From Bacteroidales bacterium (GTDB lineage Bacteria; Bacteroidota; Bacteroidia; Bacteroidales; JAIPAH01): 64,000 nt of DNA. Numbering within the stretch: position 1 is the stretch's first letter; each line of letters opens with the position of its first letter. Below are positions 39,724 through 49,092 of the stretch, piece after piece. The position numbers were made by a program, and so were the translations under genes. Under the pieces are notes generated by a model, which saw only the letters and a program-made list of their open reading frames with translations, was not told the DNA's origin and searched no databases. The DNA lies in assembly GCA_021738485.1 (NCBI GenBank), contig JAIPBX010000003.1:1241-65240 (forward strand), in the 5' to 3' direction.

Positions 39724-39790
39724 TAGTTGAATTTCTTAGCCATATATATTATATTTGTTTAAAAGTAGTATAAACCAAAATAAACAAATT

Positions 39791-40366
39791 ATGGCTTTTG
39801 AATTACCATCACTACCATTTGATCAAAAAGCGCTGGAACCGCTTATTTCTGAGCAAACCGTGTTTTATCATTACGAAAAACATCACAAAACTTACGTAGA
39901 GAAAACTAACAAACAGGTCGAAGGAACAACGTTCGCAAATGCTTCCCTGGAAACCATTATCAAAGAAGCTGATGGTGGTATCTATAACAATGGGGCACAG
40001 ACCTGGAATCACACGTTTTACTGGAACTCCCTGGACCCGGATGGCGGCGGTAAGCCATCGGGTGATCTGTTAAGAATGATTGAACGGGATTTCGGTTCTT
40101 TTGAAGAATTTAAAACCCAATTTACCAATTCCGCCACAACGTTGTTTGGATCCGGATGGATATGGCTGGCATTAACACAGGAAGGGAAGCTAACGGTACT
40201 TCAAAAAAGCAATGCCGGTAACCCCTTGCGCGACGGAATGACGCCACTTCTTACCTGCGATGTATGGGAACATGCCTATTACCTGGACCGCCAAAACCGG
40301 AAACCGGAATATGTGGATGCTTTTTGGAAACTTGTTAACTGGAATGCAGTAGTGAACAGGTTGTAA
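39791..40366 (+). CDS. sodB: Superoxide dismutase, Fe/Mn family (Fe-type signature)
   Basis: The track ORF begins at a TTG at 39755. The ATG at 39791 gives MAFELPSLPFDQKALEP. AQTWNHTFYW and DVWEHAYYLDRQNRKPEY motifs. Confidence 0.9.
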   Translation: MAFELPSLPFDQKALEPLISEQTVFYHYEKHHKTYVEKTNKQVEGTTFANASLETIIKEADGGIYNNGAQTWNHTFYWNSLDPDGGGKPSGDLLRMIERDFGSFEEFKTQFTNSATTLFGSGWIWLALTQEGKLTVLQKSNAGNPLRDGMTPLLTCDVWEHAYYLDRQNRKPEYVDAFWKLVNWNAVVNRL

Positions 40367-40439: not shown

Positions 40440-42281
40440 TTATTCTACGGTGACTGATTTCGCCAGGTTTCGGGGTTGGTCAACATTACAACCCCTCAGC
40501 AGCGCAATATGATAGGAGAGAAGTTGTAGCGGGATCGTGTTTACTAATGGATCAAGCACTTTGTGAGTAGAAGGCACTTCAATAGTATAGTCGGCAATTT
40601 CTTTTATGGATGTGTCTCCCTGGGGAACCACAGCAATTATCACGCCTTTACGTGCCTTAATTTCCTGGATATTGCTGATCACTTTGTCATAAATGCTTTT
40701 GTTAGTACCAATTACCACTGTCGGCATTTCTTCGTCAATTAAAGCGATGGGGCCATGTTTCATTTCAGCCGCCGGATAACCTTCTGCATGTATGTATGAA
40801 ATTTCCTTAAGCTTCAGTGCTCCCTCGAGGGCAACAGGGAAATTATAGCCGCGGCCGAGATAAAGGAAGTTCCGGCTATCCTGAAACTTCATGGCGATAT
40901 CTTTGACAATATCATTCGATTGCAGGGCTTGCTCTATCTTCGAAGGAATGTTATACATTTCTTGTACGATTTGCTGATAGCTTGAGGCACTGATAGATCC
41001 TTTGAGCTTAGCAATACGCAGAGCCATTAGGGATAGGACCGTGACTTGCGCGGTGAAAGCTTTTGTAGAAGCCACGCCTATTTCCGGTCCGGCATGGGTA
41101 TATGTCCCGGCATGGGTGGCCCGCGCAATCGACGAACCTACTACGTTGCAAATGCCAAGGATCGTGGCTCCTTTTGACCGTGCCAACTCAATAGCCGCAA
41201 GCGTATCGGCTGTTTCGCCTGACTGGGAGATAGCTATAACGATATCTTCTTCCCCGAGGATAGGGTCGCGGTATCGGAACTCAGAGGCATATTCCACTTC
41301 AACCGGCACGCGGGCGAGCTCCTCAAAGATATACTCCCCAACAAGGCCAGCATGCCAAGAGGTTCCGCAGGCTATAATAATAATGCGTTTGGCGGCCACC
41401 ATTTTCTGCTCATAATCAAGGATACCACCAAGGCGCACCTGCCAGTTTTCAGGGTTTAAACGACCTCGCATACTGTCAAGGATGGATTGGGGCTGTTCGT
41501 AGATTTCTTTTAGCATAAAATGATCATACCCTTGCTTTTCCAGGGCACTGAGATTCATTTCAAGCTCCTGCACATATGGTGTTTTTGATTTATTGCGAAT
41601 GGTCTTGATTTGCAGGCTTTCTCCTTTTTTAACAATAGCGATTTCTTCGTCCTCAAGATAAACCACACGTTTGGTGTGTTCCACAATAGGTGTGGCATCG
41701 GAGGCCAGGAAAAAATCATCATCTTTTCCAATACCCACAACCAAGGGACTGCCTTTACGAGCTGCGATCAGCATGTCGGGGTGCGCTTCGGAGGCTATGA
41801 CAATAGCATAAGCTCCGACGATATTGTTGAGTGCAATGCGTACGGCTTCCGTCAGATCCACTTTTTCTTTATCCTGAATATCTTCAATAAGATTAACCAG
41901 AACTTCACTATCCGTATCGCTTTGGAATGTATATCCCCGGTTGATCAATTCTTTTTTAAGAGGGGAATAATTTTCAATAATCCCGTTGTGAACGATCGAA
42001 AGCCCCATAGAATTGGAGGTATGCGGGTGGGCATTTGTATTATTGGGTTCTCCGTGGGTAGCCCATCTTGTGTGTGCTATACCTGTATGACCGCTTATGT
42101 CTTTTCCTGAAAGATATTCTTCCAGAACCGAAACTTTTCCCTTTTGTTTGTATTGTTTTACACCATGATTTACAAGTGTAATACCAGCACTGTCGTAACC
42201 GCGATATTCAAGGCGATGGAGGCCATTGATTAATACCGGGTAAGCTTGTTTATTTCCAACGTAACCTACTATTCCACACAT
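40440..42281 (-). CDS. glmS: Glutamine--fructose-6-phosphate aminotransferase
   Basis: 613 aa. Starts MCGIVGY (N-terminal Cys nucleophile). Two SIS domains. Ends AKSVTVE. Confidence 0.95.
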   Translation of the reverse strand: MCGIVGYVGNKQAYPVLINGLHRLEYRGYDSAGITLVNHGVKQYKQKGKVSVLEEYLSGKDISGHTGIAHTRWATHGEPNNTNAHPHTSNSMGLSIVHNGIIENYSPLKKELINRGYTFQSDTDSEVLVNLIEDIQDKEKVDLTEAVRIALNNIVGAYAIVIASEAHPDMLIAARKGSPLVVGIGKDDDFFLASDATPIVEHTKRVVYLEDEEIAIVKKGESLQIKTIRNKSKTPYVQELEMNLSALEKQGYDHFMLKEIYEQPQSILDSMRGRLNPENWQVRLGGILDYEQKMVAAKRIIIIACGTSWHAGLVGEYIFEELARVPVEVEYASEFRYRDPILGEEDIVIAISQSGETADTLAAIELARSKGATILGICNVVGSSIARATHAGTYTHAGPEIGVASTKAFTAQVTVLSLMALRIAKLKGSISASSYQQIVQEMYNIPSKIEQALQSNDIVKDIAMKFQDSRNFLYLGRGYNFPVALEGALKLKEISYIHAEGYPAAEMKHGPIALIDEEMPTVVIGTNKSIYDKVISNIQEIKARKGVIIAVVPQGDTSIKEIADYTIEVPSTHKVLDPLVNTIPLQLLSYHIALLRGCNVDQPRNLAKSVTVE

Positions 42282-42381
42282 AATTTGGTAAGATTTTATG
42301 TTTTTTCAAATATAGGGATTAATCTTCCTTTATTAAAGAAAGATTAGTACAAAGATTGAAATTTTCCGTGAAAGAAAAAAA

Positions 42382-43767
42382 CTATTCGACTTTTGTGTAA
42401 AGTATTTTCAGTTTCATTTTTCGCCCGGAAGCTTTCGGCCCCTTTAACACTGCATGATTAGCTTTGTTCATACTGTTAGGAATCGTTAGGAGCAAGGTTT
42501 TTGATTTTTCCGAACCTTGAATGGCTCTTTGCAGGTATCTTGAAATCCTGAATTGGTAGTGGTTATCAGCTTCATTATAGAAGCCGCCAAAATAGGCATC
42601 CCCTTCACTGTTGTCCGGTAGTAGTTCCACACCTCCCTCGATTGTGCGCAACAAGAGATTCAATTTATCCGGAGGACCAAAAATGGATTGATTTTCTACC
42701 GGAAATTGAAGAAAGGCATTGTTAATGGCGATTTTTCCTTTTAATTCCTGTAAATGCGGTAAACGGATTGTGGTTTGTATGCCGGCCATGGCCTGCAGGA
42801 ATACCCGTTGATTACCAAGTGTAGTGTCTCCATTAATTACCTGTTGTCGGAAAGAAGCAGATGCTTCTTCATAATTGTTATGGGTGTAATAATCCGTTCG
42901 TGGTGTATTGGCAAAAATTTGGTATTCATAAGAAGATGTATCACTGTCGTTATGGTAATACAGGGTGAGTTTCGATAGGGGGGAATTCATACCAATGTAA
43001 GAAATAGAACCACTTCCCGGCTCATTTACAGGATTAGCTTTAACGTACAGACCTTTAAAAAACTCCTTAAAAGATTCGTTGTCTTCCATATCGCTATCGG
43101 TCGCATTAACAAGCTTATCAGCTAATGAACCATCCAGATTGATGCGAATGTGAGGCGCTCTCAGTGCTGTATCTACCATTACCGAATCTTTCGGTTTTGG
43201 GATGAAAGAGAAATTATCAGATAATTCGACGGATTCATGATTAAAAGTTTGATTCGAATAGTAGGAGGTATCCTCGATTCGCTCGGAGAGCTCGTAGACC
43301 TCAAGATTTTGAGGAGTTACCGTATCACCATAGTGTTTTTTGTAAGCCAGGGAGAGCACTAATGAATCCACCACCGGGTTGTTACCGAAATCGTAGGTCG
43401 CTTCTGTCATAGCAAAAGAGGTGTAAAAATCCGATCGACTGATACCAAAATCCGTATCATAATAGGAGCCGATCAAGGTGAATTCCGATTCATCCGTTCT
43501 TATTGAATCCAACCTTGTGGAATGAGCATGAATGGTAAGCGTGTCCGTAGATTTAATTTCCAGTTCATTATCACCGGGTTGCACATTTAGTCCAATCTCA
43601 CTAGGCTCTTCTTCACATCCCGCAATTAATGAAACAATGGCCGCTACCAACAGGGCCTTAATCACATATCTATTCAATATAACTTCCTTTATAATTCTAC
43701 AATAAAATCCGACGCAATAGTACAAATTCTTAGAGTAACGGCAATTAGCTTTCAAGGATTTTATCAT
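42382..43767 (-). CDS. Lipoprotein, DUF4270-like
   Basis: 461-aa ORF. The first ~30 aa overlap the upstream gene and precede a lipobox (ALLVAAIVSLIAGC), so the true start is probably a TTG/GTG near 43680. The DUF4270 call rests on recalled synteny (GlgA-like gene upstream, glmS downstream) and on size. Confidence 0.45.
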   Translation of the reverse strand: MIKSLKANCRYSKNLYYCVGFYCRIIKEVILNRYVIKALLVAAIVSLIAGCEEEPSEIGLNVQPGDNELEIKSTDTLTIHAHSTRLDSIRTDESEFTLIGSYYDTDFGISRSDFYTSFAMTEATYDFGNNPVVDSLVLSLAYKKHYGDTVTPQNLEVYELSERIEDTSYYSNQTFNHESVELSDNFSFIPKPKDSVMVDTALRAPHIRINLDGSLADKLVNATDSDMEDNESFKEFFKGLYVKANPVNEPGSGSISYIGMNSPLSKLTLYYHNDSDTSSYEYQIFANTPRTDYYTHNNYEEASASFRQQVINGDTTLGNQRVFLQAMAGIQTTIRLPHLQELKGKIAINNAFLQFPVENQSIFGPPDKLNLLLRTIEGGVELLPDNSEGDAYFGGFYNEADNHYQFRISRYLQRAIQGSEKSKTLLLTIPNSMNKANHAVLKGPKASGRKMKLKILYTKVE

Positions 43768-44560
43768 AAAAATCGTTAAAAGCAGGTACGTATTGTTTCA
43801 TTTCATCTCCCTGATAATCCAGAAAGGGTTTCCCGGAGTCTTTTGCTGCTTTTTCCACTTCACTGTCAATAGATTCCGAGCCTTTGATAAGGGCGTCCGA
43901 ATGCTGAATTGCCCCTTTCATCAGATTTTGGTAATCGGGGGTTTTATAAATCTTAAGGTCATCCTCGGTTATGCCGTCCAGTTTGATTTTGCGTGGAAAT
44001 TTTTCATTTAGCTTTTCCTCAAAAGCATCATCATATAAGGAGCAAATCACTTTTGTATCCGAAAAGAGCGGGTTATCTTTAAAGGCCTTTTTTACGTATA
44101 AGGGGATAAGGCTTGCCATCCATCCATGGCAATGAATAATATCCGGAGCCCATCCGAGTTTTTTGACAGTTTCAAGAACGCCCCGGTTGAAAAATACAGT
44201 CCGCTCGTCATTGTCTTCGAAGAAATTGCCGTTTTTATCTCTAATAATGGCTTTTCGATGGAAATAATCTTCATTATCAATGAAATAAACCTGCATGCGG
44301 GCAGATTGGATAGAGGCAACTTTTATGATTAAGGGGCGGTCTGTGTCGTCAATGATAAGATTCATTCCTGAAAGACGAATAACTTCATGGAGTTGATTTC
44401 TTCTCTCGTTTATACTTCCAAATCGAGGCATGAAAGTTCGGATTTCTTTGCCTTTTTCCTGAATACCCTGTGGCAAATAGCGTCCTGTTTTGCTCATGTG
44501 GTTTTCTTTGAGATAAGGCATGATTTCTTGCGATACGAATAATACTCTTGCTTTTTTCAT
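43745..44560 (-). CDS. Short glycogen/starch-synthase-like protein (GT5 N-terminal half only)
   Basis: 271 aa. VLFVSQEIMPYLKENHMSKTGRYLPQGIQEKGKEIRTFMPRFG and DIIHCHGWMASLIPLY resemble the GlgA N-domain. No C-terminal Rossmann half. Confidence 0.6.
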   Translation of the reverse strand: MKKARVLFVSQEIMPYLKENHMSKTGRYLPQGIQEKGKEIRTFMPRFGSINERRNQLHEVIRLSGMNLIIDDTDRPLIIKVASIQSARMQVYFIDNEDYFHRKAIIRDKNGNFFEDNDERTVFFNRGVLETVKKLGWAPDIIHCHGWMASLIPLYVKKAFKDNPLFSDTKVICSLYDDAFEEKLNEKFPRKIKLDGITEDDLKIYKTPDYQNLMKGAIQHSDALIKGSESIDSEVEKAAKDSGKPFLDYQGDEMKQYVPAFNDFYDKILES

Positions 44561-44663: not shown

Positions 44664-45575
44664 TTATTTTTTTATGAATAAAGCTTTAATGATGTGAGAT
44701 GCCATTTTAGGATTTTCTTTAAGCCGGCGGGTCGAATAACCAAACCATTTTTCCCCGTAAGGAACATAAACTCGCATTTTATGTCCTTTGTTTACTATTT
44801 CCTGCCTCAAATGGGGGGTTACTCCATAAAGCATTTGAAATTCATGCATGTTTTGGGGAACCTGATATTTTTCGATTAATTCATAGGCTTTTTCAATGAG
44901 TGGCCTGTCATGCGTAGCTATGGCAGTATAAAACTTATTTTTCAACAAAAAGTCCATTTGCTCTACAAAATGCTTGTTGATGTTTTCATAGCCTTTGTAA
45001 GCGATTTCCGCAGGTTCAGTATAAATTCCTTTGCAAAGTCTGATGTTTAATGGGTGTTCCGACGTATTTAAATCCATAAGATTTTTGATGTCATCCAGCG
45101 TACGTTTCATATAGGACTGGAACACAATTCCTACATTTTCAGGGAATTCCTGCTTAAGCCTTCTGAAAAGTTCAATTTCAAGATCTGTACAGGAGGAGTC
45201 CTCCATGTCAACCCGTATAAAATTGCCATAGGAAGCAGCCTTTTTGATGACTTCCTTGAGATGCTGGTAGCAAACTTCTTTATCGATGAGTAATCCAAAA
45301 AATGTAGGCTTGATGGAGTAGTTTCCCTGGATATTGTTTTTTTCGGCAGTATCTATAATTTCAATATAAGCATCTTTATTTGCTTTAGCTTCGTCGAGGT
45401 TTGTAATAAACTCTCCCAGTAAATCAAGAGTAACCAATAGCCCCTGGCTATTCAGGTTCTTTGATTCCTGGATGGCATCATCTAATGTTTTTCCTGCAAT
45501 GTATTTTTTTGAGAAAAGCCATACGAAGGATTTGGGCATATATGGCAGAATAGCTGCAATTAGTTTGTTAAACAT
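44664..45575 (-). CDS. Proline dehydrogenase (monofunctional PutA-type PRODH barrel)
   Basis: The track ORF starts at 45650. I prefer MFNKLIAAILPYMPKSFVWLFSKKYIAGKTLDDAI at 45575. Blocks VTLDLLGE, IRLCKGIY, IATHD and YVPYGEKWFGYSTRRLKENP are PRODH-like. Confidence 0.75.
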   Translation of the reverse strand: MFNKLIAAILPYMPKSFVWLFSKKYIAGKTLDDAIQESKNLNSQGLLVTLDLLGEFITNLDEAKANKDAYIEIIDTAEKNNIQGNYSIKPTFFGLLIDKEVCYQHLKEVIKKAASYGNFIRVDMEDSSCTDLEIELFRRLKQEFPENVGIVFQSYMKRTLDDIKNLMDLNTSEHPLNIRLCKGIYTEPAEIAYKGYENINKHFVEQMDFLLKNKFYTAIATHDRPLIEKAYELIEKYQVPQNMHEFQMLYGVTPHLRQEIVNKGHKMRVYVPYGEKWFGYSTRRLKENPKMASHIIKALFIKK

Positions 45576-45858
45576 AATACGCTGTTTTAAATTGTTTGAT
45601 CCAATTTGTTTGTTATTGTAATTACAAGCAAATTTATGTTTTTTTTTCAATATTTGAAAACTTCTATATGTTATTCTTGTTCCGGGTCTTTTAGGAATTG
45701 TTGAAGATTTATATGCCCTTATGCCTGAGTTTTCCCAATAAAACTTATTTTAAATGAAAATAAATTAGTTTCCTGATATAGGAAGGCTTTGAATATGATA
45801 TATATTTGTCTGTTATTAAACTAACAATGTTTTTATTTAAACAATAAACATTTTTCGT

Positions 45859-48800
45859 ATGTATAAGATCGATAAACATCCTATTTTGGAAGTGCCGCAA
45901 AAGGAAGAGGATTCTTTTACTTTTCACAATGAAAAAGTAAAAGCAGAGAAGGGATATACCATTGCTGCGGCTTTACATCAGGCCGGCTATCCGGTGCATA
46001 GTCACAGTGTGAAACATCGTGAAAGGAGTTTGGAATGTGGAATCGGTAAGTGTGGCGCTTGCGAGATGCTTGTGGATGGCGAAGTAAGAAGAATATGTAT
46101 TACCAAAGTGGATGGTGTCAATCGTGTGGAAGAGCTACCATCGGATTATCAACCCCGCATTACCAATTACAGATCAGAAAAACAATACAAAGTATATAAG
46201 ACCGATGTGGCAGTAATAGGAGCTGGCCCTGCCGGATTGGCGGCGCGTGAAGTGCTGAATGAGTATGGCATCCCCAATGTGGTAGTAGATAATAATAATA
46301 GAATTGGCGGGCAATTTGTTATGCAGACCCATCAATTCTTTTTCTTTGAGCAGCAAAAAAAATTCGGCGGTCAGAGAGGATTTGATATTGCCGGCCAGCT
46401 AGCCGGCGATGACCGTCAGGGGATTTTTCTTAACTCCACTGTATGGGATATTCTGGATGGCAAACGATTAGCCATAAAAAATATAGCTACCGATGAAATT
46501 TATTTTGTAGATGCCGATTACCTGGTTGTTGCCACAGGAGCGATACCTTTTTTGCCCCCCTTTGAAAATGACGACCTTCCGGGGGTTTATACCGCAGCTG
46601 TGGTTCAGAAAATGATGAACACCGAATTCACCTTACTTGGCAAGAATGTATTGAGCATTGGCGCAGGGAATATCGGTTATCTCACTTCCTACCAGCTTAC
46701 ACAAGCCGGGGCGAATGTGAAAGCCATCATAGAAGCCCAACCTTCCGAAGGCGGGTTTCCGGTGCAGGCCAATCGCGTGAGGAGACTGGGCATTCCAATT
46801 ATGACGGGTCACACGCTTTTGAAGGCGATACCCAACAAAAACCATGACGGCATCAATGGTGTCATTATTGCAGAATGCCGCGATTTTAAGCCTATACCCG
46901 GCACGGAAAAGCTCATCGATGGGATTGATGCCATAAACGTATGTACAGGTTTAATTGCTGACGATCAATTGATGATTAAAGGGAATGAAGTCTTTGGAAG
47001 AAAATGTCATGTTGCCGGTGATGCTTTGAGAATCGGGGAAGGGACCACTGCTGTGCTCAGAGGGAAACAGGCCGCTTATGAAGTGTTGCAGCAAATGGAC
47101 CACCCCATCAACCATAAGCAGTATCTCAAATTGTCAAAAGAATACATTGATTCGCAGCAGGAACCGGAAAAGGTGCTGGAAAAACCCTATATCCCTTCTC
47201 ATGAGCGCATGTGGGAAAAGCCCTTTGTGATTATTGACTGTCTTCATGGTTTTGCCTGTAACCCTTGTGCTTTTGCGTGTCCTTATGGCGCTATAACAAA
47301 ATCCTCTGCGAGTACAGCCCCTCATATGGATTTTAAGAAATGTACAGGATGTATGCAGTGCATTCATCAATGCCCCGGGTTGGCTGTTTTTGGTTATGAT
47401 TTAAAAAAGCAACGCCTCTTTTTTCCTGTCGAATTTGATGTGAAAGCAAATAAGGAGGTATTTTTGATAGATAACCTGGGGAAGAAACTCGGCGAAGGAA
47501 TGCTGGAGAAAGTTTTACATAAGCCCAACATGACTCATGTGGCCAGAATTAAAGCTTTGGATTTGGGAAAGGCTGAGCTGATAGGTGTTCGCGGGTTTAT
47601 TGCAAAAGAAAATTATCCTGAGCCGCTTGAATTGAAACCGGCGGACCGGATAGAGAATGAAGAAAGCTTTGTGTGTCATTGTGAAGATGTAAAACTCAAG
47701 GAAATTCTGGAAATTATTGGTGATCGTAACTTCATCTCGGTAGATGAGATTAAACATATCACTCGTATGGGAATGGGGGCATGCCGCGGGAAACGCTGTG
47801 TTAAGCGGCTGAAGCAAATGCTCGGCCCGAAGGGGGTTACCCTGGTAGGCGACTCAACACCACGAGCCCCTTTATCTAACCAGATAGGGATGGGAGAAAT
47901 TTATCCCCCAACACAGCATGAAAAAGTTTTGCCCCTTCATCTTAATGGCGGACTGAAAAAAATCAAAACCAAAGCCCTGGTTGCCGGTGGAGGAATAGGT
48001 GGCAGTGCTCTTTTCCGTTATCTGGCCGAAGAAGGATACAGCCCGGTTCTGGTAAATTATGAGAGAGGTTCTTCATGGAGGAATATAGCCGGGGGAAGGC
48101 CGAATTTTAGCATGCCTGAGCTATCAGAAATAGCGCTGAAGAATAAGGAAATCTTTGAAGATCTTCAACAAAGAAAAAATATAGATTATCGGCCCATCCG
48201 CTATGTTACCATGGCTCACGACGATAAAGTATATGCTGCTCTTGAGGAATCGATGAAATGGTCTGATTCGTACATGATAAAACCTGCCGATTTTCCAAAA
48301 GAAATTGCTCCTACGTTTAATCCCAATTGCCAAAAATATAAGGCGGCTTTGGTGACAAAAAATTGCTGGCAATCAACCCCGGGTAAGACCATAGATCTAC
48401 TCCGAAAAATCGGAATCGAAAATGGAGGAGCAGTTCAGGAAGATTGTAAAATGATTGACGTGTGGAGGGAAAAAGAGAATTACCATGTTTTGGTGAGACA
48501 GCATGATGGGGAATATGTGGTTTATATTACTGAAAATTTTATTAATGCCCTGGGGCATAAAGGAGAAGAGTTTGCCAAAAAACTTGGAATTGATACAAAA
48601 TTGTTCCCCGTAAAACATCAGGCATTCATCACACGCCGGCTCCCCTATCTAGGGATTGATGGGAAACCTTTCCCTATGGTTATAGATCGAAGAAAATATA
48701 AGGGTTTTGTGGCAGTCTATGGTCAGCAACTGGCAGAAACAGGACAGATTATAGGTTGCGCTTCTCCGGAAAATGAACCCCTGGAAACTCAATCAAACTT

Positions 48801-49092
48801 AAAGATTAATTCAAAAGAATTTATGGAGATTGCCACAGAAGTTTTTGTTGACTGGCTTCCGGAACTGTCTTCCATCGGATTGCAAGCATTGTGGGCGGGG
48901 TATTATGTGGAGCCACGAATGGTTATCGATGTGCAGAAGGGTTTGTTTCTTGGCCTCCGGGGACAGGGCTACATGTTAGGTCAATACCTGGCGAAAATGT
49001 ATGTCGATAAGCTGACAGGGAAGGCTGTGCCTCAATATTTTAACCGTTTGGCACTCCAGGGCGATGGATTACTCGAAAAAGCCTTTAAATAA
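45859..49092 (+). CDS. Multidomain Fe-S flavoprotein: 2Fe-2S-like + FAD/NAD(P) oxidoreductase + 2x[4Fe-4S] ferredoxin + BFD-like [2Fe-2S] + DAO-type FAD dehydrogenase
   Basis: 1077 aa. Cys60/65/68/80 (CGIGKCGACEM...RIC). GAGPAG at 121-126 and GAGNIG at 268-273. C461/467/470/474-P and CTGCMQCIHQCP at 495-506. CHC...CRGKRC at 606-647. VAGGGIGG at 708-715, then a sarcosine-oxidase-beta/HcnC-like body. Confidence 0.7.
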   Translation: MYKIDKHPILEVPQKEEDSFTFHNEKVKAEKGYTIAAALHQAGYPVHSHSVKHRERSLECGIGKCGACEMLVDGEVRRICITKVDGVNRVEELPSDYQPRITNYRSEKQYKVYKTDVAVIGAGPAGLAAREVLNEYGIPNVVVDNNNRIGGQFVMQTHQFFFFEQQKKFGGQRGFDIAGQLAGDDRQGIFLNSTVWDILDGKRLAIKNIATDEIYFVDADYLVVATGAIPFLPPFENDDLPGVYTAAVVQKMMNTEFTLLGKNVLSIGAGNIGYLTSYQLTQAGANVKAIIEAQPSEGGFPVQANRVRRLGIPIMTGHTLLKAIPNKNHDGINGVIIAECRDFKPIPGTEKLIDGIDAINVCTGLIADDQLMIKGNEVFGRKCHVAGDALRIGEGTTAVLRGKQAAYEVLQQMDHPINHKQYLKLSKEYIDSQQEPEKVLEKPYIPSHERMWEKPFVIIDCLHGFACNPCAFACPYGAITKSSASTAPHMDFKKCTGCMQCIHQCPGLAVFGYDLKKQRLFFPVEFDVKANKEVFLIDNLGKKLGEGMLEKVLHKPNMTHVARIKALDLGKAELIGVRGFIAKENYPEPLELKPADRIENEESFVCHCEDVKLKEILEIIGDRNFISVDEIKHITRMGMGACRGKRCVKRLKQMLGPKGVTLVGDSTPRAPLSNQIGMGEIYPPTQHEKVLPLHLNGGLKKIKTKALVAGGGIGGSALFRYLAEEGYSPVLVNYERGSSWRNIAGGRPNFSMPELSEIALKNKEIFEDLQQRKNIDYRPIRYVTMAHDDKVYAALEESMKWSDSYMIKPADFPKEIAPTFNPNCQKYKAALVTKNCWQSTPGKTIDLLRKIGIENGGAVQEDCKMIDVWREKENYHVLVRQHDGEYVVYITENFINALGHKGEEFAKKLGIDTKLFPVKHQAFITRRLPYLGIDGKPFPMVIDRRKYKGFVAVYGQQLAETGQIIGCASPENEPLETQSNLKINSKEFMEIATEVFVDWLPELSSIGLQALWAGYYVEPRMVIDVQKGLFLGLRGQGYMLGQYLAKMYVDKLTGKAVPQYFNRLALQGDGLLEKAFK

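Follow-up and report, generated by a model that had tools for sequence, protein, structure and literature searches.

A single-chain iron-sulfur flavoprotein of Bacteroidales as a candidate L-proline dehydrogenase

The fusion gene, its modules and its distribution

We analyzed a 64,000-nucleotide stretch of contig JAIPBX010000003.1 from a Bacteroidales bacterium (assembly GCA_021738485.1), which we call the window, and describe here one of its genes, an open reading frame (ORF) on the plus strand whose product may oxidize proline. The ORF is open, starts with ATG and encodes 1,077 amino acids (~120 kDa), as the original prediction, made from the letters of the sequence, had it: a single polypeptide that fuses modules normally found as separate subunits. 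Pfam finds the five modules that were predicted (Fer2_4, Pyr_redox_2, Fer4, Fer2_BFD and DAO) in the predicted order, and all cysteine and glycine motif positions named at the time lie exactly there. We refer to the gene and its product as the fusion; its parts are as follows.

45859..49092, plus strand: fusion gene, 1,077 aa; the N-terminus MYKIxxHPILE is conserved, with M1, I4, H7, P8 and L10 invariant
45913..46116, plus strand: module 1, Fer2_4 [2Fe-2S], residues 19-86 (Pfam E 9e-10)
46204..46974, plus strand: module 2, Pyr_redox_2, a two-dinucleotide-fold flavoprotein, residues 116-372 (Pfam E 6e-21)
47239..47376, plus strand: module 3, 2x[4Fe-4S] ferredoxin insert (Fer4_7/Fer4_9 at residues 466-506)
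47383..47604, plus strand: small all-beta domain after the ferredoxin insert, residues ~509-582, with no family assigned (secondary structure of the AlphaFold2 model, pLDDT mostly 80-92)
47671..47823, plus strand: module 4, BFD-like [2Fe-2S], residues 605-655 (Pfam Fer2_BFD E 3e-8, above cut-off)
47974..49002, plus strand: module 5, DAO-type FAD dehydrogenase, presumed catalytic, residues 706-1048 (Pfam E 6e-28)

In an alignment of 53 orthologs that are 64-81% identical to the window protein, we found that all 16 of the 16 cluster cysteines are invariant, as are glycines 121, 123, 126, 268, 270, 273, 710-712 and 715. The cysteines of module 1 form the motif C60-x4-C65-x2-C68-x11-C80. Module 2 carries GAGPAG at 121-126 (FAD site) and GAGNIG at 268-273 (an NAD(H)- or ADP-type site), has an invariant E292 after the second Rossmann strand and is alignable with residues 128-371 of SoxA and 108-257 of PH1363. 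In module 3, the Fer4_7/Fer4_9 match (E 2e-5) is under the gathering score, yet both cysteine motifs are complete (C461-x5-C467-x2-C470-x3-C474-P and C495-x2-C498-x2-C501-x3-C505-P); the closest solved ferredoxin domains are those of RnfB (1.6e-5) and the C-terminal domain of HdrA (1.2e-3). Module 4 has the motif C606-x-C608-x33-C642-x4-C647 and is overlapped by a weak SO_alpha_A3 match at residues 601-673, and the BFD region (residues ~584-650) aligns to PH1363 391-457. Module 5 contains GGGIGG at 710-715, an invariant HQAFITRR block at 920-927 (T925 is nearly invariant) and G1035/G1037/M1039. The AlphaFold2 model of the whole protein has a mean pLDDT of 77 and a pTM of 0.69. No hydrophobic segment of membrane-spanning length is predicted, and the protein is most likely soluble and cytoplasmic. 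The 'internal electron wire' that had been proposed is a suggestion that draws on the invariant cluster ligands.

We searched an even sample of 201 Bacteroidales genomes from 148 families and found one uninterrupted, full-length copy of the fusion in 92 of them, at 55-71% identity and with no internal stops. In a phylum-wide Bacteroidota sample, it is present in only one genome outside Bacteroidales. A word-indexed protein search with the fusion gave 2,488 matches; nearly all of the top 120 are 1,075-1,102 aa long and come from metagenome-assembled genomes (MAGs) and complete chromosomes of Bacteroidales/Bacteroidota, where they are annotated just as 'FAD-dependent oxidoreductase' or 'ferredoxin'. 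When the library is clustered at 50% identity, the family reduces to essentially one other representative.

The long ORF might have arisen by assembly or gene calling that joined separate subunit genes: the genome that holds the window (G000) is fragmented (78% complete, 156 contigs), and many entries in the database are partial (350-660 aa). However, uninterrupted ORFs of 1,075-1,080 aa are present in the 92 sampled genomes, among them chromosomes assembled as one contig (3.9 and 4.6 Mb), the junction regions are conserved, length is nearly constant among orthologs, and most of the partial entries come from short contigs, at most a few kb long. With these intact copies, an assembly-made fusion was rejected as having next to no probability; a search for full-length homologs, which the original prediction had suggested as a check, thus speaks against an artefact. 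When the DAO module by itself was used to look for stand-alone relatives, only fusion fragments on short contigs came up. Two database proteins, P0282 (583 aa, on a 689-kb contig) and P0283 (383 aa, on a 336-kb contig), are C-terminal pieces of the fusion called as separate genes, and may be frameshifts in long-read assemblies or truly split genes.

The N-terminal 680 residues (2Fe-2S, flavoprotein, 2x[4Fe-4S] and BFD) recur as a unit in other lineages at ~30% identity, either alone (~700 aa) or joined to a DAO domain (1,185-1,218 aa), to flavodoxin, to a GltD-like module, or to polyferredoxin together with MvhD/FlpD. Its fusions to partners other than DAO suggest that the unit is a general-purpose low-potential electron-transfer cassette. 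Examples of such fusions are P0136 (1,310 aa; the same type as G164:C145:16095-18134), P0151 (867 aa) and P0169 (1,179 aa).

Relation to heteromeric iron-sulfur flavoenzymes

A search of PDB sequences with the full protein placed 1y56_A (9e-14) and 1y56_B (7e-5) first, followed by SoxA. When a profile of the DAO module was compared with PDB, 1y56_B matched at 5e-15 over 348 positions, with dimethylglycine dehydrogenase next (1.7e-7) and then glycine oxidase (6.6e-4); SoxB was absent from the listed matches of that search. Foldseek with the AlphaFold2 model likewise ranked 1y56_B first (TM 0.79, target-normalized) and 1y56_A second. Judged by domains, motifs and fold, the fusion is a single-chain version of the heteromeric iron-sulfur flavoenzymes of the PDH/HcnABC type. 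The original prediction had likened it to HcnABC and to the opine, hydroxyproline, sarcosine and archaeal proline dehydrogenase complexes, and the Pfam, PDB, profile and fold searches uphold that likeness; it named no characterized enzyme with the full fusion, and we found no characterized member of the family in the literature searched.

Dye-linked L-proline dehydrogenases of Thermococcales occur as an alpha4beta4 enzyme (PDH1; P. horikoshii PH1363/PH1364, PDB 1y56) and as an alpha-beta-gamma-delta type in T. profundus and P. horikoshii (see PMC4575208 and PMC8704557). For both halves of the fusion, the archaeal enzymes come out on top by sequence, profile and fold, and they likewise consist of a DAO-type catalytic part and a two-dinucleotide-fold partner, the N-terminus of which corresponds to the [2Fe-2S] gamma subunit of bacterial enzymes (PMC4575208). 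The fusion differs from them in being a single polypeptide where they have two to four subunits, in being bacterial, mesophilic and Bacteroidales-restricted, in having a canonical BFD cysteine set and a canonical second GxGxxG, and in its sequence, the DAO part being only ~20% identical to the archaeal beta subunit. Kawakami et al. are said to have found in 2004 that the four-subunit archaeal type includes a small ferredoxin-like subunit; the 2x[4Fe-4S] insert of the fusion would be the counterpart of that subunit.

The OdhABC opine and LhpBEF D-hydroxyproline dehydrogenases are alpha4beta4gamma4 complexes (Watanabe et al. 2015, PMC4575208) with the motif C-x4-C-x2-C-x11~12-C in the gamma subunit and C-x-C-x15~20-C-x4-C in the alpha subunit (PMC4575208). 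The same three building blocks make up the fusion. It matches the gamma motif exactly and has two ADP-binding motifs (GAGPAG and GGGIGG, with invariant glycines), it has the ligands C-x-C...C-x4-C of the alpha motif at a longer spacing, and its cofactor set is likely the same (2 FAD, FMN and [2Fe-2S]). In contrast to these complexes, the fusion is a single chain with an extra 2x[4Fe-4S] domain and a beta domain, its BFD spacer is 33 residues long instead of 15-20 although the ligand pattern is kept, it has no opine or hydroxyproline pathway genes nearby, and the opine dehydrogenase structure 7fgp reaches only about rank 50 by fold.

The cysteine motif of module 1 is also that of HcnA, and the order Fer2_4, Pyr_redox_2 with BFD, DAO is the gene order hcnA-hcnB-hcnC. 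HcnABC has three separate subunits, whereas the fusion is a single chain with an added ferredoxin insert and no curated family match, its hosts are anaerobes with a gene profile centered on delta-1-pyrroline-5-carboxylate (P5C), and nothing indicates glycine or cyanide. Residues 114-353 align to the dinucleotide domain of SoxA (5e-10), and the SoxA model TIGR01372 scores 75 bits against a cut-off of 1164, from the dinucleotide domain only. Unlike SoxABDG, the fusion has no folate-binding C-terminal half (no GCV_T domain by Pfam) and no gamma/delta subunits, and its N-terminal flavoprotein keeps a canonical second GxGxxG...E site. Finally, PutA/Thermus-type proline dehydrogenase (ProDH, PF01619) resembles the fusion in proposed reaction and role, in co-occurrence with P5C dehydrogenase (P5CDH) and ornithine aminotransferase (OAT), and in a Rex-type operator. 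However, that enzyme is a TIM barrel with one FAD, the fusion has a DAO fold and several Fe-S clusters and flavins, and the electron acceptor is presumably different; Pfam matched PF01619 (Pro_dh) not in the fusion but in the neighboring gene.

Proline genes, operators and the proposed reaction

We searched for ProDH, P5CDH (TIGR01236, counted when above cut-off), ProC, ProA, OAT and OCD in the same 201 genomes. P5CDH is present in 72 of 92 fusion genomes (78%) and 34 of 42 ProDH genomes (81%), as compared to 26 of the 76 genomes with neither (34%). The odds ratio for P5CDH with either the fusion or ProDH is 7.3, and 7.5 with one genome per family. Among the 119 genomes that have both P5CDH and OAT, 62 have the fusion only, 27 ProDH only, 7 both and 23 neither; here fusion and ProDH exclude each other with an odds ratio of 0.096 (0.12 with one genome per family). 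Ten of 49 within-family genome pairs are discordant for the fusion, and four of these are reciprocal swaps in which the fusion-free member has ProDH and the fusion-bearing member has none. This is the pattern that non-orthologous displacement of ProDH by the fusion, upstream of the same P5CDH, would produce. The window genome has two P5CDH genes above the TIGR01236 cut-off (G000:C23:24725-26308 and G000:C87:1777-3360), and so does G126, in which ProDH and the fusion are divergent as well.

In the window, a ProDH gene and two candidate operators lie upstream of the fusion.

44664..45575, minus strand: monofunctional PutA/Thermus-type ProDH, divergent to the fusion (Pro_dh 7e-38; nearest to the Thermus-type monofunctional model)
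45610..45627, no strand: second, weaker Rex-type box TTGTTATTGTAATTACAA, which departs from the consensus at 3 positions and lies 35 nt before the ATG of ProDH
45801..45808, plus strand: putative Bacteroidetes-type -7 element TATATTTG (TAnnTTTG) for the fusion, read from the sequence
45810..45827, no strand: Rex-type palindromic operator CTGTTATTAAACTAACAA, with the exact core TGTTA-N6-TAACA at 45811-45826

Matches to ProDH homologs begin near residue 20-26 of the longest ORF; the ATG at 45575 is therefore favored, which leaves the 283-bp gap between divergent genes that the original prediction had given. That prediction took the adjacency to point to proline, hydroxyproline or opine metabolism. 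We predicted ORFs in ~19-kb regions around 40 orthologs and in the window locus (41 loci), grouped them, and found that ProDH adjoins the fusion in only three, divergently in the window and in G126 and tail-to-tail in G122, so the adjacency argument is weak alone. Among the substrates that the prediction listed, the evidence as a whole favors proline. ProDH is present in just 9 of 92 fusion genomes, and the window ProDH is better seen as a functional analogue of the fusion than as an obligate partner. In G097, a P5CDH gene in the same orientation immediately precedes the fusion; in G159 and G018, one is found no more than 6 kb away. The neighborhood comparison that had been proposed yielded no recurrent functional partner among the 41 loci.

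The box CTGTTATTAAACTAACAA lies 32 nt upstream of the fusion ATG, directly after the -7 element, for which we take TAnnTTTG to be the Bacteroidetes consensus; its core is exact, but it has 3 mismatches in the 14 specified positions of the consensus that we used for scanning (TTGTKAA-N4-TTMACAA, at most 2 mismatches, against shuffled sequences). A TTGTTAA variant of the Rex operator is known from clostridia. In the scan, a box is present in 37 of 119 orthologous fusion upstream regions (31%) as compared to 2.5 in shuffles, and the sites cluster at -46 to -80. Boxes are also found upstream of ProDH in 6 of 20 fusion-free genomes (30%; 0.6 expected), and upstream of P5CDH in only 1 of 20. Thus, the mutually exclusive fusion and ProDH genes have an operator type in common. 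The S. aureus Rex operator is TTGTGAA-W4-TTCACAA (PMC2883068).

Taken together, the mutual exclusion with ProDH, the equal co-occurrence with P5CDH, the common operator type and the archaeal L-proline dehydrogenase as best match link the fusion to proline, and we lean towards the reading that it is a catabolic, soluble L-proline dehydrogenase that converts proline to P5C. Modules, cluster ligands, distribution, profiles and operator sites were observed here; we infer substrate, direction, cofactor content and electron acceptor. Proline would be oxidized at the FAD of the C-terminal DAO module. The adjacent BFD [2Fe-2S] cluster would take up the electrons, possibly by way of an FMN at the interface, of the kind seen in the archaeal and opine enzymes, and relay them over both [4Fe-4S] clusters, so that they reach the FAD of the N-terminal two-Rossmann module, whose NAD(H)-type site is canonical. 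A second entry or exit for electrons may be the N-terminal [2Fe-2S] domain, and P5C would be taken to glutamate by the separately encoded P5CDH. The hosts would be amino-acid-scavenging, mostly anaerobic Bacteroidales, where the fusion most likely does the job of the quinone-linked PutA-type ProDH. If so, about half of the sampled Bacteroidales species begin proline catabolism with an enzyme unrelated to PutA/PRODH, and metabolic reconstructions of Bacteroidales MAGs would wrongly score carriers of the fusion as non-users of proline, because the annotation names only an 'FAD-dependent oxidoreductase' or 'ferredoxin'.

Several observations weigh against an L-proline dehydrogenase. ProC is present in 12 of 92 fusion genomes as compared to 71 of 109 others (odds ratio 0.08) and ProA in 5 of 92 (odds ratio 0.047), a depletion that persists strongly with one genome per family, has no parallel in ProDH genomes and would fit a P5C-reducing role too. 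A TIGR01236-type P5CDH is missing in 20 of 92 fusion genomes, and kinship is handled in the profile statistics only by one-per-family sampling and within-family pairs. The substrate is not readable from ~20% identity to the archaeal beta subunit, and no curated NCBIfam family matches the whole fusion or the DAO module alone. Oxidation of proline with NAD+ as sole acceptor is thermodynamically uphill by estimated potentials, which leaves the acceptor unexplained, and Rex usually derepresses NADH-consuming enzymes. Finally, ProDH and the fusion are adjacent in 3 of the 9 genomes that hold both, so their roles could be complementary rather than redundant.

That adjacency, as expected of complementary steps, also speaks for a second reading, in which the fusion oxidizes another imino or amino acid (D-proline, hydroxyproline, pipecolate, sarcosine, an opine, a D-amino acid or, as in HCN synthase, glycine) and its links to proline genes reflect a neighboring pathway and not the same reaction. 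Characterized members of the group differ widely in substrate despite their common architecture (PMC4575208), none has a catalytic subunit with more than ~20% identity to the fusion, and the DAO module is claimed by no curated family. However, complementary steps predict positive co-occurrence with ProDH, and what we observed is strongly negative, with reciprocal swaps. Routes from D-proline or hydroxyproline need a racemase or epimerase, a P2C reductase or a deaminase, none of which recurs beside the fusion in the 41 loci; the folate-binding GCV_T domain of the sarcosine and dimethylglycine enzymes is absent; and the best match is an L-proline enzyme, not SoxB, glycine oxidase or opine dehydrogenase. 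We consider another substrate doubtful, while giving it some weight.

The strong anticorrelation with ProC and ProA speaks for a third reading, in which the fusion stands in for ProC, acting either as a P5C reductase or as an oxidoreductase that freely interconverts proline and P5C. Electrons would run from NAD(P)H through the N-terminal flavin and the clusters to the DAO flavin, and P5C made from ornithine by OAT would become proline, a building block or, at high NADH, a sink for electrons. Reduction of P5C by NADH is thermodynamically downhill by estimated potentials. In two within-family swaps the fusion stands against ProC plus ProA, and OAT is present in 86 of 92 fusion genomes with OCD in only 22. 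Rex-regulated genes are typically NADH sinks (regulon examples in PMC2883068 and PMC6391272). OCD was also considered as a hidden proline route; with its presence in just 22 of 92 fusion genomes, it leaves the question unsettled.

In contrast, we found that the loss of ProA and ProC fits a general auxotrophy. In five high-quality fusion genomes (96-100% complete), hisD is above the cut-off in one of five, trpB in one of five and argH in none. Because these genes are mostly missing too, the absence of ProA and ProC belongs to a wider loss of biosynthetic pathways; the five genomes are those of general amino-acid scavengers in which ornithine is not made de novo, and multiple amino-acid auxotrophy seems common in fusion-bearing lineages. 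Fusion, ProC and OCD are all missing in 30 of 201 genomes, which indicates that a missing proline route is tolerated in the order. The catabolic ProDH has the same operator at the same frequency, a P5C reductase explains neither the P5CDH association nor the exclusivity with ProDH, and a 120-kDa multi-cofactor enzyme is a costly substitute for a 270-aa ProC. With hisD, trpB and argH missing alongside and the same operator on ProDH, we downgraded a P5C reductase, a reversible enzyme included, to unlikely. The near-complete environmental Bacteroidales genomes G074, G057, G116, G090 and G102 are missing ProA and ProC along with argH (5 of 5) and hisD and trpB (4 of 5). In G057, G057:C2:867-4503 and G057:C3:698097-701733 gave identical hisD and trpB matches with equal scores, and are probably a duplicated assembly segment.

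Electron acceptor, putative regulon and neighboring genes

For the L-proline dehydrogenase that we favor, the acceptor might be explained by flavin-based electron confurcation. The unfavorable energetics with NAD+ alone led to this idea, together with the pair of Fe-S entry points and the existence of relatives joined to flavodoxin or MvhD. The fusion would then be a single-polypeptide electron-confurcating (or bifurcating) proline dehydrogenase, in which proline oxidation would be driven by co-oxidation of reduced ferredoxin, yielding two NADH, reversibly. The lactate dehydrogenase/Etf complex of acetogens is an analogue, which the fusion would condense into one chain. We regard this as rather improbable; if true, it would explain why strict fermenters replace a quinone-linked ProDH, why there are two separate Fe-S entry points, why proteins related to the N-terminal 680 residues carry flavodoxin or MvhD/polyferredoxin fusions, and why the Rex-type operator is held in common with bifurcating-hydrogenase-like operons. 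A single-chain ~120-kDa form of a three- or four-subunit redox complex is handy for studies of intramolecular electron transfer, and would help to settle the physiological electron acceptor of PDH/HcnABC-type enzymes.

The window genome has a rex gene (PF06971 match above cut-off, G000:C69:21492) and 15 exact TGTTA-N6-TAACA sites, all of which are intergenic (6.5 expected overall). Five of these sites lie ahead of two NuoE/HydC-like [2Fe-2S] genes, three at one and two at the other; others precede a HydG-like radical SAM gene, a PntA/AlaDH-like gene, a saccharopine dehydrogenase gene, GdhA, a glutaredoxin-like gene and a YceI-like gene (site positions C69:13514-13748, C83:19987-20047, C69:24480, C4:11401, C29:12456, C143:9463, C73:23078 and C93:14335). 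The 15-site gene set is plausible as a redox (Rex) regulon, and in Caldicellulosiruptor bescii, HydG has been validated as a target of Rex (PMC6391272); we found no study of a Rex regulon in Bacteroidales in the literature searched. With a putative Rex operator over its promoter, the fusion appears to have its expression tied to the NADH/NAD+ ratio. Such apparent Rex control of both alternative proline dehydrogenases connects amino-acid catabolism to NADH/NAD+ sensing in Bacteroidales.

The fusion gene looks monocistronic, with upstream gaps typically of 70-770 bp. Its commonest neighbors in the 41 loci are a yceD-plsX-fabH housekeeping block (11 of 41) and a block of glmS, BamH and a short GlgA-like gene (5-6 of 41), and this recurrence is synteny, not an operon. 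The latter block, made up of glmS, a DUF4270/BamH-like gene and a half-size (271-aa) GlgA-like gene, lies upstream of the fusion in the window (40440-44560) and in L020, L021, L022, L025 and L033; because it recurs, the truncated glycogen-synthase-like gene is a conserved feature and not a local accident. In 7 of 41 loci (L019, L024, L027, L037 and others; 39755-40366 in the window), an Fe/Mn superoxide dismutase gene sits a few kb or less from the fusion, which may reflect the oxygen sensitivity of an Fe-S enzyme or mere synteny. In three of these seven loci, a nitroreductase-like gene is directly downstream and convergent, and in two more it lies elsewhere in the ~19-kb locus.

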